Assembly (NCBI GenBank): GCA_040882355.1
Contig: JBBEBM010000009.1
Location: forward strand, 1 to 43,869
Reading direction: 5' to 3'
Source of the DNA: Dehalococcoidia bacterium
GTDB taxonomy: Bacteria > Chloroflexota > Dehalococcoidia > DSTF01 > RBG-16-68-14
DNA length: 43,869 bases
A program made the position numbers and the translations under genes. This document shows, one piece after another, positions 18,007 through 31,833 of the stretch (positions are counted from its first letter, which is position 1; every line of letters starts with the position of its first letter). The notes beneath the pieces were generated by a model. It searched no databases and was not told the origin of the DNA. It worked only from the letters and a program-made list of their open reading frames with translations.

Positions 18007-18817
18007 CTAGGAAGGCTCGTCGGCGAGGCCGAGGAGCTGCTCGCTGGCGGCGAGGAAGTCGCTCGCCTGCTGGACGAGCCGGCGGGCCTCCTCAGCGCCG
18101 ACTTCATCTCGGTAAGGAGTAGTCAGCCTTGTTGCGCGCAGAGAAGGCGCGGCTGAACGCCTGCCCTAGCGCAGCGGGGAGTCGCTTCGTCTTCACGTAC
18201 CGCTCGTTGAAGGCGCTGATCACGCCTCGATGTCGAGAGAACGCCAGCCCTTACGAGAGCAGCAACGCTGTGGCCGCGTGGAACATCGCGTAGTACGCGC
18301 GGTTGGCCGCCCAACCAGATAGCTTCTCGTTCAGTCCGATCCGCGCACCTTCAAGGGCTTCGTGAGCCCGGCGCAGCACCAGTTCCAGATCATCCTTCTG
18401 AGTGTCCTCATACCGCGGCCGCTCCTCGCGCACACGCGTCGGCCGGCCCGCCGACCACAGCTCGACGCCCTCGCGCCGGATGTTCATGAAGAGCGGCAGC
18501 ATCCGCGTGCGGTAGTCCGTCTCTGTGGCGACGAGCGGCGCGAGCAGCGGGTATTCGAAGTGCTCTTCAAGATCGTAGGCGAGGCTCACCGGCACCTCGT
18601 GTTCCGTCCCGACGTCGAAGTCGTCGCGCAGCACGACCAGCAGGTCTACGTCCGAGCCTTCCTCGTCGGCGTCGCCGCGGGCGCGCGAGCCGTAGAGGAC
18701 GACCGCAGCGAGCCGGTCGCCGTAGTGCGCGAGTACTTTCTCGACGAAGGCGCAGACGGCGCGCTGCCAGGGGGCGTCCCCGCCGATAGCTGGGTTGACG
18801 GTCGCCGCGCTGGTCAT
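18007..18817 (-). pseudogene. MNT-HEPN fusion with HEPN half disrupted (TAA at 18251-18253 and +1 frameshift near 18114)
   Basis: LYGSRARG...SDVDLLVV (MNT); NRAYYAMFHAA, then past the stop GLAFSRHRGVISAF...RNKADY, and in a shifted frame EEARRLVQQASDFL to TAG at 18007. Confidence 0.85.
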
Positions 18818-18827
18818 GCTTGATCGG

Positions 18828-19559
18828 CTAGTGGCCGTCGCCTCCTCCACCACCGTCGCCGGGCGCGTCGGGCGTCGGCGCGGGCGGCGCATCTGGCGCT
18901 GGCGCGGAGGGCGCGGCCGCCGAGGGCGCGGCAGCGGGCGGCGCAGGCGGAGCGCCGGCCGCCGGACTCGCCGGCATCCCGGCGCCGCCGTTCTCGAACG
19001 AGAACGGCGGGTACTCGTCGACGAGCGAGGCCATGTACGCCAACACGCGGGCGTTCCAGCGCAGGTACCCGCGGATGAAGTTCTCGGCCCAGTCGGGGGA
19101 GGTGCCGTTGATCAGGATCGAGACCGCCGCGATCAGCCAGACGAAGAAGAAGACGATGCCGATGATCCCCAGGACGATCGCGTGCGGGATCGCCAGGATG
19201 ATCCGAAGCAGCGCCTGACCCACCGACGGCTTGCCCGTGGGCCGCACGTTGAACTGCACAACGTCTTCGGGCTTCTCAGTCGAGAGCTTGTCGGTGGCGA
19301 GCGCCATGTAGCTGTAGAACATCAAGAGGAAGCGCAACCATCTAGTAGGGCCCTGCTCCGCCTCCGCAAGGTACTTCTCGGGCCCCTTCTGCGAGATCAT
19401 CACCGCCGCGATGATCGGAAAGGCCAGGTACGCGCCGCCAAAGACGAACGAGGTGACCTGGAAGATGGAGAGCGCGATCAAGATCACGACTCGCAGCAGG
19501 ATCTGCATCTTGTCGAACTGTTGGGGCGGTTGAATGTCGAATGTGGCGGGATAGGCCAT
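18828..19559 (-). CDS. DUF4389-like membrane protein with Pro/Ala-rich tail
   Basis: RIILAIPH, LRWNARVLAYMASLVDEYPPFS. Confidence 0.82.
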   Translation of the reverse strand: MAYPATFDIQPPQQFDKMQILLRVVILIALSIFQVTSFVFGGAYLAFPIIAAVMISQKGPEKYLAEAEQGPTRWLRFLLMFYSYMALATDKLSTEKPEDVVQFNVRPTGKPSVGQALLRIILAIPHAIVLGIIGIVFFFVWLIAAVSILINGTSPDWAENFIRGYLRWNARVLAYMASLVDEYPPFSFENGGAGMPASPAAGAPPAPPAAAPSAAAPSAPAPDAPPAPTPDAPGDGGGGGDGH

Positions 19560-19657: not shown

Positions 19658-20218
19658 TCACGCCAACCCCCTCCGGTAGCCGTACTCCACCGTCGCGCTC
19701 AGGTCGCGCAGCTCGCGCGTTTCGGCGGCGCGCGCGTAGCCGAGCCGCTCGTACAGGCGATGCGCGTCCTCGAAGCGCGTGTCCGACCAGAGGAAGACCT
19801 CACGCGCCCCGCGCGACGCCGCCTCCGTCTCCACCAGCTCGACCAGCCGCGCGCCCAGGCCTCGCTTGCGCCAGCGACGGTGCACGTAGAGCATCCGCAG
19901 CTCCGCATCGTCCGACGCCGCGCCCGTACCCTCGCCCTTGGGGAGAGGGTCGGCCGAAGGCCGGGGTGAGGGCTCCGACGCCGCGCCCGCCACGAGCCCC
20001 ACCGTCGCGACGAGGCGGTCGCCGGCGACGACCACCCACAAACGCCCGCCCCAGCCGGCGTACGCGCTCGCGATCGCGCGGAGGTGCGGCATCTCGCCAT
20101 CGACGTCCAGCACGCAGCCCTCGTACTCGGACCAGCACGACGCCACCAGCCCGATCACGTCGTAGCTGTCGTCGTCGGTGGCGTCGCGAACGGTGAGACG
20201 GTCCGTGTCGATGGTCAC
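19658..20218 (-). CDS. GNAT N-acetyltransferase carrying a 21-aa in-frame repeat insertion
   Basis: AELRMLYV, RKRGLGARL, LWSDTRFEDAHRLYERLGY. Confidence 0.88.
   Translation of the reverse strand: MTIDTDRLTVRDATDDDSYDVIGLVASCWSEYEGCVLDVDGEMPHLRAIASAYAGWGGRLWVVVAGDRLVATVGLVAGAASEPSPRPSADPLPKGEGTGAASDDAELRMLYVHRRWRKRGLGARLVELVETEAASRGAREVFLWSDTRFEDAHRLYERLGYARAAETRELRDLSATVEYGYRRGLA
19911..19989. repeat. 47-bp palindromic element (19927-19973) flanked by exact 16-bp direct repeats
   Basis: TCCGACGCCGCGCCCG at 19911-19926 and 19974-19989; insert on minus strand GCCCTCACCCCGGCCTTCGGCCGACCCTCTCCCCAAGGGCGAGGGTA. Confidence 0.85.
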
Positions 20219-20238
20219 GAGCGCGCGGCCTTGCTGGC

Positions 20239-22821
20239 TTAGAGTTCGACGATACCCTGGTCGCCGTCGACGGTGATCCACTGGCCGTCGCGGATCGTCG
20301 ATGTCGCGTCGCGGGTCATGATCACGGCCGGGATGCGGTACTCGCGCGCGACGAGCGCCGCGTGCTGGAAGACCGCGCCCTGGTCGAGCACAAGCCCTCC
20401 CAGCAGCGGGAAGACCGGCGTCCAGTTCGGCCCAGCGTTGACGGCGACCAGGATCGCCCCCTTCTCGACCTTGGGCGGCCGGGCCGTCATCGGCACGACG
20501 CGCGCCTTACCCAACACGCGCCCGCGCGAGCCGGCCACGCCGCGCAGCACCTTCCCGTCCAGTCCGACGCCCTCCGGCAGGTCGAAAATCGCGAACGGCG
20601 CGGCCGGCGGCGGCCCGCCCGATCCGATGTTCAGGGGCGGCCGCAAGCCCAGGCGCCGCTCGTGCTCGGCCTGGCGTTCCCGCACGATCGTGCGCAGGTC
20701 CTGCGGGCCGCGACCGGACGCGATGCGCCGCAGCTCGGCAACGGGGAAGTGCAGCACGTCGTCGGGGTCGTCGAGACGCCCTTCGTCGACAAGACGCCGG
20801 CCGACGAAGTAGATCGACTCGCGGAACGCGCCGCCGGTCGCCTGCTCCATCATGTGATTGTGGTTCTCCATATCGCAGACTTCTTGCTGCGCCTGCGAGA
20901 GCATGCGGTCGAAGCGAGCAAGGCGCGTTGGGTCGGCGGCCAGCATCCGGCGCACGCGCCGCGTCTGGCGCAGCCGTTCGGCGCGCGCCTCGACCTCGAG
21001 TCGATCGAGGCGGTCGAGTTCGAGCTCGGCGTAGGCGGCGATCATGTCGAGCGGCTGCTCGGGCTGCATGCTCCACGTCGGCGTGTCGAACAACGTCGCC
21101 GAGCCGAAGCCGCGGCCAGTCCGACGGCCGTGACGCTTGAGGAGGCGGCGAAACCCCTCGTTGAGGCGCCGCACGCCCGGCCGCTCGCGCACGCGCCGGT
21201 CGTCGAGGCGCTCGTACGCGCGCGTGGCGAAGATCGAACGCAGCGTCCGGTCCTGCTGGACGAGCCTCGCCAGCCCACGCAGCGAGCGGATCATGCGCGT
21301 CGTCTTGTTCTCGATGGCCTGCAAGAAGACACCGGCATCGACCTGGGGCTCGCCGGTGAGCTCCGTGTAGACAGCGCCCCAATCGAGCCGGCGCGAGATG
21401 TTCGCCCCGGCGAAACGCCAGTGCAGGTCGCCGAGCACGCGGGAATACGCCCGCATCGCGCTCTCCATGTGCGCCACGAGCTCCTTCCGCGACGCGCGCT
21501 CCGGCCGGAAACGTTCGAGCTCGCGCACGATCTCTTCGACTTCTGGGCGAAGCTCTTCCTCCCAGATCGACGTGCTGCGGTCGTAGTACTTCTGGGCGCG
21601 TGCGCCGTAGCGCTGCAGAAGCGCCGCAACCTTCGCTTCGTCCACATCCGGGCCACGGCCGTAGGAGAAGCCGTCGATGAAGCAGATGATGTGGTTCCGC
21701 GCGAGCGGCGAACCGGTCGCGTTGAAGCAGGCCCGCGAACCGGCGTAGTACGCTCTCAGCGCGTCCTGCTCGAGGCGACGTGTCGGCACCGCTCCGCGTT
21801 GGGGGATGCGATAGAGGAGCCATGTATGGTTCGCGTCCTCCGGCTTCTCCCAGACGATCGGAAAGTCGGGCGTCTCATCGACCGCGGTCACCGGCCGCGC
21901 CTGCAATAGATGGACGGAACCGTTGCGCACCGCGAACTCGATGTCCTGGTGGCCTTCGAAGAGCCCTCGCACCGACGTGGCGAGGCTGGCCAGCTCAATC
22001 AGGTGCTGCTCGCGGAGCGCGGGCGCCGTCTGCTCCTTCGACCGGACCTTGACTCGGCGCAGGCCGCCCCGCCGGGCGAGCGTGACCTTGTAGTCCTTCG
22101 TAGCGATCTCACGGTCGAGGACAGCGCCGCTCTCCGGGTGCAGGCCGAAGCGATCGGCGGGCGCCTCGCCCGCCACGACACCCTCGCCCATGCCGAGCGC
22201 CGCGTTCACGACGTAGCGGTTCTCGTCGCTCGTCATGGGGTCGCGCGTGAAGAGCACGCCAGCCGCTTCCGCGGGCAGCAGCTCCTGCACCACGACGGCC
22301 ATGCGCACGTCTCCGTCCGCTATGGCCCGCTGGCGACGGTACGAGACCGCCCGCGGCGAGTAGAGCGACGCCCAGACGTGCAGGATGCGCTGGAGGATCT
22401 CGGCGGGCCCGAGCACGTTGAGGAAGCTGTCGTACTGCCCGGCGAAGCTGGCGGTCGGCAGGTCCTCCGCCGTCGCCGAGGAGCGCACGGCGACCGCCGG
22501 GGCGCCCATCGAATGGTGCGCGTCGTGGACGGCGCCAACGATGTCGTCCGGCAGCTCGTGCCGCTCGAGGCGCTTGCGCGCGCTGCGATACGCATACTCC
22601 AGCGCATCGAGATCGGCGACGTCGACCCCCGCGAACGTCGCTTCGATCTCCGACAGCAGCCCGTCCGTGCCGCGCTCGAACGCGTGCGCCGTGACGACGA
22701 AGCCGGCTGGCACCGGCAGCCGCGCCTTGATCATGCGCGCCAGCGCCGCCCCCTTCGCCCCCGCAATGGCGGGGTCGTGCGCAGCGGTGTCGTGAAGTGG
22801 AATGACGTGTCTGCGGGTCAT
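20239..22821 (-). CDS. PEP-utilising enzyme, PEP synthase / rifampin phosphotransferase-like architecture
   Basis: GAKG, VAVRSSATAEDL..ASFAGQYDS, QDIEFA, LLQARP; C-terminal QHAALVAREYRIPAV (phospho-His) and VDGDQG. Confidence 0.9.
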   Translation of the reverse strand: MTRRHVIPLHDTAAHDPAIAGAKGAALARMIKARLPVPAGFVVTAHAFERGTDGLLSEIEATFAGVDVADLDALEYAYRSARKRLERHELPDDIVGAVHDAHHSMGAPAVAVRSSATAEDLPTASFAGQYDSFLNVLGPAEILQRILHVWASLYSPRAVSYRRQRAIADGDVRMAVVVQELLPAEAAGVLFTRDPMTSDENRYVVNAALGMGEGVVAGEAPADRFGLHPESGAVLDREIATKDYKVTLARRGGLRRVKVRSKEQTAPALREQHLIELASLATSVRGLFEGHQDIEFAVRNGSVHLLQARPVTAVDETPDFPIVWEKPEDANHTWLLYRIPQRGAVPTRRLEQDALRAYYAGSRACFNATGSPLARNHIICFIDGFSYGRGPDVDEAKVAALLQRYGARAQKYYDRSTSIWEEELRPEVEEIVRELERFRPERASRKELVAHMESAMRAYSRVLGDLHWRFAGANISRRLDWGAVYTELTGEPQVDAGVFLQAIENKTTRMIRSLRGLARLVQQDRTLRSIFATRAYERLDDRRVRERPGVRRLNEGFRRLLKRHGRRTGRGFGSATLFDTPTWSMQPEQPLDMIAAYAELELDRLDRLEVEARAERLRQTRRVRRMLAADPTRLARFDRMLSQAQQEVCDMENHNHMMEQATGGAFRESIYFVGRRLVDEGRLDDPDDVLHFPVAELRRIASGRGPQDLRTIVRERQAEHERRLGLRPPLNIGSGGPPPAAPFAIFDLPEGVGLDGKVLRGVAGSRGRVLGKARVVPMTARPPKVEKGAILVAVNAGPNWTPVFPLLGGLVLDQGAVFQHAALVAREYRIPAVIMTRDATSTIRDGQWITVDGDQGIVEL

Positions 22822-22828
22822 GCGGTCT

Positions 22829-22838
22829 ACGTTAGCAC
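22829..22838 (-). promoter_or_regulatory. Extended -10 element for a leaderless PEP-utiliser transcript
   Basis: Minus strand GTGC-TAACGT, then 7 nt to ATG 22821; no SD. Confidence 0.45.
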
Positions 22839-22861
22839 GGCGCGGTGCCAGTTGGCGGGTT

Positions 22862-22924
22862 CGCGCTGTCCACCCTCACCCGGCCTGCCGGCTGCCCCTC
22901 TCCCAATGAGAGAGGGGCGCGTGC
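22862..22924. repeat. 63-bp direct repeat with internal palindromes, copy 1 (downstream of DUF559 gene)
   Basis: 55/63 identical to 23390-23452; CCCTCACCC...CCCCTCTCCCAATGAGAGAGGGG. Confidence 0.88.
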
Positions 22925-22959
22925 CGCTTGCGCTCCCCTGGAGCCGAGAAGCTCTGAGG

Positions 22960-23358
22960 TCACGAGCGTTCCCCAAGCACGCGAGGGGTGAGCAGATGAA
23001 GCTCGCGCCGTACGCTCTCCGCAACCGCATTCATGTTCTTCTCGACCTGTTCCGCATCGATGCGGAGCACGCGAAGGCCCAACGCTTCGAGGATCTGCTG
23101 ACGCCCGCGGTCAGCGGCCCGCTTCCCAAGGTGGATCGGGCCGTCGATCTCCACGATCAATCCGGCCTCATCACAGTAGAAGTCCACCACGAACGAACCG
23201 ATCGGCTGCTGACGGCGAAACTTGTAGCCACCCAGCTTTCGACTTCTCAGCACATCCCAGAGCAACGCCTCGCTTGGCGTCGGCTCCCGCCGCAACTCGC
23301 GCGCAATCTCCACCATCCGCTCCCTCAATTCTGCCGTGACGAGTTCGTCAAACCGCAT
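22960..23358 (-). CDS. DUF559 / Vsr-like endonuclease domain protein
   Basis: ARELRREPTPSEALLW, GYKFRRQQPIG.FVVDFYC, IVEIDGPIH, DRGRQQILEALGLRVLR. Confidence 0.92.
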   Translation of the reverse strand: MRFDELVTAELRERMVEIARELRREPTPSEALLWDVLRSRKLGGYKFRRQQPIGSFVVDFYCDEAGLIVEIDGPIHLGKRAADRGRQQILEALGLRVLRIDAEQVEKNMNAVAESVRRELHLLTPRVLGERS

Positions 23359-23389
23359 CTTTCCGGCCAAGTCTACATGTCATCTTGAG

Positions 23390-23489
23390 CGCGCTGCCGT
23401 CCCTCACCCTGCCTACCAGCTACCCCTCTCCCAATGGGAGAGGGGCGCGTGCATCCTGGTGTTTCCCGCACACGCGCGTGGGGTGAGGG
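23390..23489. repeat. Direct repeat copy 2 (23390-23452) plus closing GGGGTGAGGG arm (upstream of DUF559 gene)
   Basis: CCCCTCTCCC-AAT-GGGAGAGGGG perfect stem; CCCTCACCC (about 23401) can pair with GGGTGAGGG (23481-23489). Confidence 0.88.
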
Positions 23490-23553
23490 CCCCCGCAGTG
23501 GCCGGGTCGCGCGACGCAGCGTGATGGAGCGGGATGACGTGTTTAGCTACCAC
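23489..23553 (-). pseudogene. Orphan 5' fragment of the PEP-utiliser gene
   Basis: GTG 4 nt after the ilvD stop; MVAKHVIPLHHAASRDPATAGA versus MTRRHVIPLHDTAAHDPAIAGA; homology ends at the repeat arm. Confidence 0.8.
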
Positions 23554-23557
23554 TGTG

Positions 23558-25249
23558 CTACCCGCAGACAGCGCCCTCTGACGCCGAGGAAACCAGCCGC
23601 GCATACTTGGCGAGCGCCCCCCACGTGTAGTGCGGCGGGGGCGGCGTCCACGCGGCCAGCCGGCGGTCGATCTCCTCCTTCGGCACGTGCAGCTCCAGCC
23701 GGCGGTTCGCGGCGTCGACGGTGATCTGGTCGCCGTCCTGCACGATCGCGATCGGCCCGCCGACCGCGGCCTCGGGCGCGACGTGGCCCACCATCAGCCC
23801 GCGCGTTGCGCCGGAGAAGCGGCCGTCGGTCACCATCGCGATCTGGTCGCCGAGGCCCTGCCCGACGAGCGCGGCCGTCGTCGCGAGCATCTCGCGCATG
23901 CCGGGGCCGCCCTTCGGCCCTTCGTAGCGGATGACGACGACGTCGCCCGCCTGGATCTCGCGCCGCTCGACCGCGGCGAAGCACGCCTCCTCGCCGTCGT
24001 AGACACGAGCGGGGCCGGTGCGATCCAGGTGCGCGACCGACGCCACCTTCGCGACAGCGCCCTCGGGCGCGAGGTTGCCGCGCAACACGACGATCGTGCT
24101 CCCGCCCGAGAGCGCCTTCTCGACCGGGTGCACCACGTCGCCGTCGGGCGAGACGTTGATCGCATCGAGGTTCTCGGCCATCGTCTTGCCGGTGACGGTG
24201 AGCGCGTCGCCGTGGAGCGCGCCTGCCTTCAGCAGCTCCTTCAGCACGACAGGCACCCCACCGACGCGATGCAGGTCGGCCATCACGAACGTACCGCCCG
24301 GCTTGAGGTCGGCCAGGTGGGGCGTGCGCGCGCAGACCTTGTCGATGTCGTCCAGCGTGAAGTCGACGCCCGCCTCGCGCGCCAGAGCGAGGAGATGGAG
24401 CACCGCGTTCGTCGAGCCGCCGACGGCGACCGCGACCGCGATGCCGTTTTCGAGCGCCTCGCGGCTGATGATGTCGCGGGGGCGGATGTTCCGCTCCAGC
24501 AGGTTGAGCACTGCCTCCCCCGTGCGGCGGCAAACGTCGGTGCGCTCCGGGAAGACGGCGGGCACGGCGGCGCTGCCGGGCAGCGCCAGGCCGACGGCCT
24601 CGCTCACGGCGGCCATCGTATTCGCGGTGAACATGCCGCCGCACGAGCCGGCGCCAGGACAGGCGACGTGCTCCAGCTCCAGCAGGTCGGCTTCGCTCAT
24701 GGTGCCGGCGCTGTGCGCGCCCACGCCTTCGAAGACGTCCTGCACGGTGACCGGACGCTCGTGGTAGGTGCCGGGGAGGATACTGCCGCCGTAGAGGAAG
24801 ACGCTGGGCAGATTGACGCGCGCCATCGCCATCATCATGCCAGGCAGGCTCTTGTCGCAGCCGGCGATGCCCGCGAGGCCGTCGTAGGCGTGGGCAAGCA
24901 TCATCACCTCGGCCGAGTCGGCGATGATCTCGCGGCTGACGAGCGACGCCTTCATCCCCTCGTGGCCCATCGCCATCCCGTCGCCGACGGCGATCGTCGC
25001 GAACTCGCGGGGCGTGCCGCCGGCGCCCTTCACGCCCGCCTTGACGTGCTGCGCCAGACCGCTCAGGTGCATGTTGCAGGGCATCGCCTCGTTGCCGGCG
25101 TGACCCACGGCGACGATGGGCCGCGTGAGGTCATCGTCGGTGAGGCCCATCGCGTAGAAGTACGAACGGTTGGGCGCGCGCTCGGGCCCCTCGGTCACCT
25201 GCCAGCTCCTGGGCTTCGTGCCGGCGTGCGTGGCGGTTTCGGTGGTCAT
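23558..25249 (-). CDS. ilvD: Dihydroxy-acid dehydratase
   Basis: [61 protein letters not shown]. Confidence 0.97.
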
Positions 25250-31823: not shown

Positions 31824-31833
31824 NNNNNNNNNN
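31824..31833. other. Assembly gap (10 N)
   Basis: Run of n in the sequence. Confidence 1.

Follow-up and report, generated by a model that had tools for sequence, protein, structure and literature searches.

Prophage e14 of Escherichia coli K-12 is 15 kb long, has an integrase and uses one fixed site. At icd/icdC, as described in the available part of PMC13626634, this insert lies inside a gene end and supplies the working end, the other end remains beyond the insert as a fragment with silent-site differences, and recombination between the two ends can excise the insert. A displaced gene end with a diverged replacement end is likewise found in the stretch analysed here, a 43,869-nt window of contig JBBEBM010000009.1 from a Dehalococcoidia bacterium, in which a 732-nt unit with two hairpin repeats and a gene for a DUF559 protein stands between a stranded 22-codon start of a phosphoenolpyruvate (PEP)-utiliser gene and the start with which this gene is intact. 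Unlike e14, the units considered here measure 45-730 nt, lack an integrase, sit at the 5' and 3' ends of many unrelated genes and are joined at a hairpin foot. We favour a model, with a probability of roughly 0.6, in which the repeat–DUF559–repeat unit arrived from a related cell together with the working start and its predicted promoter, through homologous crossing-over on the gene side and non-homologous joining at the foot of the hairpin.

Palindromes of the REP/REPIN type (REP, repetitive extragenic palindrome) are dispersed outside genes in tens per genome, and a small RAYT (HUH-Y1) gene is flanked by the same repeats. Similarly, the dispersed palindromes here match the repeats beside the small enzyme gene; however, this gene encodes a Vsr-like PD-(D/E)XK nuclease rather than a RAYT, the two repeats are direct copies, no GTAG/CGTC tag was seen, and the insertions lie within gene ends that have a diverged replacement. 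In phages, free-standing homing endonucleases are encoded by lone nuclease genes beside a gene whose neighbouring allele differs from that of relatives, and classical homing copies both flanks and leaves no duplicate. By contrast, the insertions here have no shared target, leave duplicates instead of a clean conversion, and behave alike in nuclease-free copies. Displacement arrays of effector–immunity genes from the type VI secretion system and of Rhs genes form by homology-facilitated illegitimate recombination, with one homologous anchor and one non-homologous joint, leave displaced ends as orphans that can stack, and carry toxin tips as cargo, a process described as rare in the available part of PMC5361080. 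Orphans also stack at rarA in genomes G071 and G007, but the genes here are housekeeping genes, the repeat serves as cargo, alone or along with DUF559, and no more than 8 nt separate the joint from the foot. Finally, Caulobacter VsrA, a Vsr-like DUF559 protein, is treated as a mismatch-repair nickase in the available part of PMC12907096. The DUF559 protein of our locus has the same domain and motif as VsrA and PDB entry 3HRL, and differs from VsrA as described there in its association with repeats and its proposed mobility, links that do not appear in that part of the paper.

On the minus strand, the order of features is ilvD, 4 nt, a 22-codon orphan, repeat 1, the DUF559 gene, repeat 2, about 40 nt and the PEP-utiliser gene:

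23558..25249, minus strand: ilvD, dihydroxy-acid dehydratase, 563 aa, the upstream neighbour, with its stop at 23558-23560, 4 nt before the orphan (open reading frame list; Pfam ILVD_EDD_N and ILV_EDD_C)
23488..23553, minus strand: orphan 5' end of the PEP-utiliser gene, codons 1-22, GTG start at 23553, probably the original start (repeat comparison; orthologue P0002)
23390..23489, minus strand: repeat 1, a hairpin (23401-23489) with foot CCCTCACCCC, inner palindrome CCCCTCTCCCATTGGGAGAGGGG and foot GGGTGAGGG, plus an 11-nt tail common to repeat 2 (sequence comparison, folding)
22960..23370, minus strand: DUF559 gene, Vsr-like PD-(D/E)XK endonuclease, 136 aa from TTG 23370, alternative start ATG 23358 (Pfam; PDB 3HRL match)
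22862..22992, minus strand: repeat 2, the hairpin repeat once more in direct orientation but diverged, matching at 55/63 nt in the 3' part (sequence comparison, folding)
22829..22838, minus strand: predicted extended -10 box GTGCTAACGT, 7 nt before the ATG, likely the leaderless promoter of the working gene (genome-wide TAnnnT peak)
22756..22821, minus strand: working 5' end, codons 1-22, ATG 22821, probably the incoming, diverged copy (residue comparison with P0002)
20239..22821, minus strand: intact PEP-utiliser gene, PPDK_N and PEP-utilizers mobile domain, 860 aa (open reading frame list, Pfam, protein search)

The initial annotation of this DNA had reported that the start of the PEP-utiliser gene occurs twice, and its numbers are correct: the 54-nt direct repeat at 22757-22810 and 23489-23542, with a spacing of 732 bp, is identical at 42 of 54 nt (78%), six of the 12 differences are silent (ATC/ATT, CCG/CCA, CTC/CTT, CAT/CAC, GCG/GCT and CCG/CCC), and the orphan begins 4 nt after the ilvD stop. 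Both start codons are in register, the orphan reading (M)VAKHVIPLHHAASRDPATAGA and the working start MTRRHVIPLHDTAAHDPAIAGA. A flank-against-flank blastn comparison gives E 2.7e-8 for this pair, and its match score is 20, whereas 396 cross-locus pairs used as a null have a 99th percentile of 12. As the genome was assembled from a metagenome, two strains might have been misassembled at this point; this explanation is practically negligible, given that contigs from three samples of one study span every junction with 0 differences and that the same layout recurs in other genomes. A single contig of run X1, possibly the source sample of this DNA, covers 20341-23914, and the junctions are bridged by contigs of X2 (22642-23111; 23201-23912) and X3 (22251-22865, 22841-23043, 23030-23377, 23370-23682). 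The duplicated start is not an assembly error.

The joint between orphan and unit coincides with the foot of repeat 1 (23489): the orphan stops at the first base of the CCCTCACCCC foot, one C being common to both. Folded as single-stranded DNA, repeat 1 has z = -3.2, and about 38 palindromes of its type occur genome-wide in 33 clusters; an Rfam search of 22700-23650 gave 0 matches at E 0.5. The DUF559 gene, whose final codons lie in repeat 2, matches PF04480 with 114.9 bits against a cut-off of 20.6 (E 2e-33, frame intact; Pfam), and PDB 3HRL matches its protein at E 2e-18 in an alignment with an intact-looking D-F...E-x-D-G-x-x-H motif. It is the sole gene of the 732-nt unit, integrase and HUH-Y1 transposase genes both being absent by open reading frame list and Pfam, and its GC content at third codon positions (GC3) is 0.76 compared with 0.89-0.94 in the neighbour genes. 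A single-sequence structure model of the protein (predicted local distance difference test score, pLDDT, 47) was set aside unused.

As the initial annotation had proposed, the orphan is probably the original 5' end of the PEP-utiliser gene, because it is closer than the working start to the nearest orthologue, P0002. This protein (88% over 860 aa, compared with 77% for P0003; both are single JGI proteins from the protein search) begins MAARHVIPLHHAASRDPAVAGA. Residues identical to P0002 number 19 of 22 in the orphan, 15 of 22 in the working start, 20 of 22 in codons 23-44 and 744 of 838 (89%) in the remaining body; a value of 15 or fewer in the working start has a binomial P of 0.008 and is equalled in 42 of 816 body windows. 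Moreover, the orphan has S14 in common with P0002, a residue carried by 2 of 102 homologues, and it likely shares its lineage with the gene body. The foreign look of the working start reaches no further than about codon 15-22, and this odd tract ends roughly together with the duplicate. At the DNA level, no close empty-site relative was found, as no genome or metagenome locus is closer than ~55% (G010 orthologue 52%, best metagenome locus 50%). In G010, the order ilvD, gene, PEP gene is kept, in agreement with the initial annotation; the gene between the two is unrelated. The slot after ilvD differs in content in most family members.

Immediately upstream of the working ATG, TAACGT at 22834-22829 is preceded by TGC and lies 7 nt before the start codon, without a Shine-Dalgarno sequence. 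Genome-wide, TAnnnT is enriched 6-9 nt before ATG (9, 5, 14 and 17 cases among 521 starts, compared with ~4 at other spacings), mostly following TGC, and the available part of PMC3160421 describes such signals ~12 nt before the start as marks of leaderless genes. It is thus plausible that the working gene has its own leaderless promoter, as predicted from this motif; of the promoter put forward in the initial annotation, the -10 box with its TGC prefix fits the leaderless motif of the genome, and no two-box promoter emerged from a sigma-70 scan. The stretch preceding the working ATG was also considered as a remnant of the ilvD end (AVLT-stop against AVCG-stop, 10/18 nt), and this reading was dropped because the genome-wide leaderless motif explains the stretch at least equally well. 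Codon usage had been taken as a marker of origin, with a host-like orphan and a working copy rich in AT-ending codons. This argument fails. GC3 in this genome is 0.71 in codons 2-6 of its genes and 0.79 in codons 7-13, compared with 0.89 in bodies; in codons 5-22, AT-ending codons number 5 in the working copy and 3 in the orphan, with a genome mean of 3.3 and at least 5 in 134 of 521 modelled starts (26%); and over 19 pairs of working and stranded ends, described below, the direction is 18 versus 16. Codon usage was therefore rejected as an origin marker.

Based on this architecture, we suggest that the unit lay next to the end of the PEP-utiliser gene in a donor, and that the incoming piece comprised the outer repeat foot, DUF559, the second repeat, the promoter and ~20 codons of the donor allele. 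On the gene side, a homologous crossover would have occurred between about codons 15 and 30, while the other side would have been closed by a non-homologous joint at the hairpin foot, made either in the recipient, by homology-facilitated illegitimate recombination, or previously in the donor, giving a small circle that later crossed over once. Both routes give the same product here, and the donor circle with a single crossover fits the short foreign tract at this locus and the pattern at a symporter gene (L144, below). At the locus itself, one side is homologous, with the gene continuing in frame, and the other is a non-homologous joint with few shared bases at most. Survivors would be the events that leave a complete gene, hence the pile-up at gene ends. 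DUF559 may nick at or near the repeat foot and so make the repeat family prone to such joining, a guess from their association, and the PEP-utiliser gene may now be read from its own leaderless promoter, no longer coupled to ilvD.

The locus is not the one-off cassette of the initial annotation: the same layout is found at many unrelated gene ends, with or without DUF559. DUF559 loci were taken from genome contigs and from order- and phylum-wide family searches (120 of 170 listed matches, the best-scoring and most same-order ones), giving 205 distinct matches, 175 of them with 500 nt on both sides; genes were named by Pfam. Duplicated gene ends bracket 11 of these 175 loci, and 9 of 75 within the order. 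Two of the 11, C82 of this genome and L165, were picked up solely in an unmasked flank screen. 3' ends are affected more often than 5' ends:

5' ends: the present PEP-utiliser; acyl-CoA dehydrogenase (L294); class I tRNA synthetase (L300, 41/41 identical)
3' ends: rarA/MgsA (C82 of this genome, with a 23/23 identical core, L223, L293 and L298); uvrB (L289); another PEP-utiliser (L218)
Further 3' ends: sodium:solute symporter (L144); type I restriction R gene (L165)

In this genome, 5 of the 33 repeat clusters flank DUF559 genes and 28 stand alone. Flank-to-flank matches were obtained for 13 of the 28, and 9 are clear gene-end duplicates, so that about a third of the stand-alone repeat copies have a working gene end on one side and a stranded one on the other:

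Ends at stand-alone repeats: UbiA-family, GATase_5, DUF2961, Sir2, an unnamed gene, polysaccharide deacetylase, MutS and a peptidase; glycosyltransferase at its 5' end

As a matched control, the same test was applied to 1110 repeat-free gene ends out of 1874 and yielded 6 matches at E 1e-5, of which 2 are gene-end duplicates, both adjoining other repeat families (Fisher P 2e-13 for 9/33 clusters versus 2/1110 controls). Among random windows (1254 of 2030 tested), 46 had any repeat and were read as repeat proteins or tandem paralogues; six short cases were examined and included one further bracket, at purH. Because stand-alone repeats are also bracketed, the DUF559 gene is not needed in cis.

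The anatomy of the duplicates was compared in 19 pairs, leaving out C82 of this genome (no core differences), a second G007 copy, C4:129518, purH and C42:71449. In 18 of the 19 (two by eye), the stranded end lies -1 to 8 nt from the outer foot of the repeat, the exception being L165, whose joint lacks a repeat; the working end either runs into the repeat or is separated from it by 2-149 nt. The best-conserved stretch of the duplicates usually adjoins the joint, and across the 19 loci the joints have no common sequence and no fixed attachment site. This last result bears on the earlier proposal of homing by a free-standing endonuclease, whereby DUF559 would cut the empty start of the PEP gene and the cassette would bring a recoded, cleavage-resistant end. 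An insert that carries a nuclease gene with an intact-looking motif, and rarA ends struck repeatedly (duplicates in 4 genomes), would agree with homing. Yet, besides the lack of a common joint sequence, close DUF559 relatives are found at PEP, uvrB and ilvD ends, some replacements are identical to what they replace (L300, 41/41; C82, 23/23), nuclease-free repeats do likewise, and the orphan, which is the supposed target, is retained next door. We consider homing, and with it resistance to re-cleavage, very improbable.

Pooled over the 19 pairs, there are 53 silent changes at 184 sites and 46 replacement changes at 563 sites, a ratio of replacement to silent rates (dN/dS) of 0.24 (0.12-0.39 when loci are bootstrapped, 0.25 with this locus left out and 0.20 with rarA counted a single time), and the aligned orphan codons contain no premature stops. 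An exact copy followed by drift of the orphan would be expected to give at least 0.5, and the lower observed value argues that both copies have evolved mostly as working ends. It also largely speaks against duplication in place with neutral decay of the orphan, or against an orphan left over from a tandem paralogue. One DUF559 gene (L131) does lie between tandem whole-gene paralogues, and some orphans have indels (L165, C42:86047, C43). However, 0.5 was reached in 10 of 5000 bootstrap samples, the working copy should be closer to the orthologue under decay while it is the orphan that is closer, and no other piece of a second PEP gene lies nearby. These sequence comparisons leave decay or a paralogue improbable and largely refuted.

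Two successive steps, namely an insertion with an exact 20-110 nt duplication of the recipient's own end and a later allele swap by ordinary homologous recombination, would likewise predict a low dN/dS. Identical duplicates of the kind expected from the first step exist (L300 41/41, C82 23/23, purH 61/61), and the rarA copy pairs share genome-specific residues (WW in G002, KKIKD in G007). Nevertheless, closely related donors would also yield identical pairs, and a second event is required in most of the 19. At the present locus, the foreign-looking tract ends with the duplicate, which a later swap need not do, and the DNA upstream of the orphan is not the source of the 41 nt that contain the -10 box (10/18 nt match to the ilvD end, by eye). 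We regard the two-step explanation, the strongest of the competing ones, as unlikely compared with direct arrival of the unit with a donor end.

Individual loci add to the picture of arrival by recombination. In G009, the orphan tail agrees in its states with congeners G001 and G014 (by eye, 3 of 40 nt differ from G001), and the working tail agrees with the nearest congener, G015 (4 differences); both ends are thus natural alleles, and G009 alone gives no polarity. L144 has a diverged head, an identical core and a diverged tail, the pattern expected when crossing over takes place within the duplicated piece. The rarA locus of G071 contains three stranded tails, each of them behind a repeat, and that of G007 contains two DUF559 units along with three tails, while mutS in this genome has a chimeric middle unit, part orphan and part working end. 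Therefore, repeated displacement and recombination between copies occur. Related DUF559 genes are found at different host genes (PEP, uvrB and ilvD ends) in a quick tree, in which the rarA DUF559 genes are not one clade; with 81 rows, 104 columns and many open forks, the latter is a hint only.

Several points weigh against the arrival of the unit with a donor end. The contigs compared contain no joint that skips the 732 nt and no excised or empty form, although contigs drop rare forms. The polarity call depends on one close protein, P0002, the body windows mentioned above (42 of 816) are as diverged from it as the working start is, and no MTRRHV-type start of a donor was found among 103 homologue N-termini, the best other match (13/18) being P0002 itself; indeed, no donor allele was found among the homologues searched, and the foreign tract is only ~20 codons long. 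In the 19 pairs, reading frames were set by hand and the ungapped high-scoring segments trim diverged tails, and although neutral decay is excluded by a dN/dS below 0.5, an allele swap at a later time is not. As many as 164 of the 175 DUF559 loci have no duplicate, for example G010 rarA and the ilvD locus of G001, where the slot after ilvD holds a repeat–DUF559–repeat unit without a gene fragment. Conversely, brackets without this repeat exist at the purH start, L165 and one G007 orphan, such that DUF559 may not be needed, and a second hairpin family (TGTCA...TGACA) has 1 bracket in 24 clusters. The purH, L165 and G007 cases make clear that host recombination can leave such brackets without this repeat.

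We tentatively speculate, and hold it rather doubtful, that DUF559 and the CCCTCACCCC...GGGGTGAGGG hairpins form an undescribed class of mini mobile element without integrase or transposase, whereby the Vsr-like nickase cuts the foot and the unit, or a bare repeat mobilised in trans, takes along the adjoining gene end together with its promoter or stop and, by swapping that end in, enters the same gene of relatives. If so, even essential genes are colonised (tRNA synthetase, uvrB, rarA, mutS) and their termini and promoters repeatedly rewired, as in the turning of an ilvD-coupled PEP-utiliser gene into a leaderless one here. We found no description of DUF559 with repetitive extragenic palindromes, or of this layout, in the literature covered, which left out most subscription papers and bioRxiv supplements; our results point to a common and apparently undescribed way for small palindromic repeats to spread. 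By carrying in the gene end of a relative, the repeats likely insert into genes and leave them unbroken, which would provide a route for exchanging gene starts, stops and promoters between lineages with the gene kept intact. The association also suggests a role that can be tested for DUF559, a domain that is widespread but whose function is unknown. As a caution, short diverged gene-end duplicates near hairpins should be taken neither for assembly errors nor for decayed paralogues.

Further observations concern the same slots and repeats. After ilvD, a 422-nt contig from another study (run X5) aligns with the ilvD end (187/196) and next with repeat 1, without aligning to the orphan (23414-23753); it hints at a relative with ilvD followed by the repeat, but is a single short contig in which the letters between are unread. 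At L024 (G011 C93:2082-2402), only the final 107 codons of a PEP gene, 71% identical, lie near ilvD, suggesting a deletion or an assembly join. Look-alikes of a nucleotidyltransferase-HEPN gene stand directly after ilvD in G007, G009 and G015 (L110, L112, L113), and the same gene lies 4.7 kb further down in this window (18251-18892, minus strand). In the slot that follows rarA/MgsA, the cargo differs between nearly all family members (L334-L344, L223) and includes DUF559 units, bare repeats, low-GC genes and what we take to be a HicA-like gene.

At purH (L355:1322-2147; C79 of this genome, ~21260-22150), a 61/61-nt duplicate surrounds a nucleotidyltransferase-HEPN pair with no recognised hairpin repeat, the same displacement by a toxin-antitoxin-type cassette. 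The single bracket of the TGTCA...TGACA family (L356; C42:71450-71545 of this genome) has a displaced ATP-grasp_2 3' end with 65/68 nt, and C61:9225-9790 of this genome consists of tandem 193-nt units, each combining a gene end with two other short palindromic repeats. Some working genes, namely Sir2 and DUF2961 (L349, at C42:100595 of this genome, and L348), now run into the repeat and take their final residues and stop codon from it, and the stranded copies keep the normal ending. Within the window, a short N run lies near 31830 (XXXX in translations of open reading frames). Downstream of the PEP gene, a GNAT acetyltransferase gene (19658-20281, minus strand) has a copy of the hairpin repeat in open frame at 19929-19949, read as ~20 extra residues (SEPSPRPSADPLPKGEG) inside the Pfam domain.

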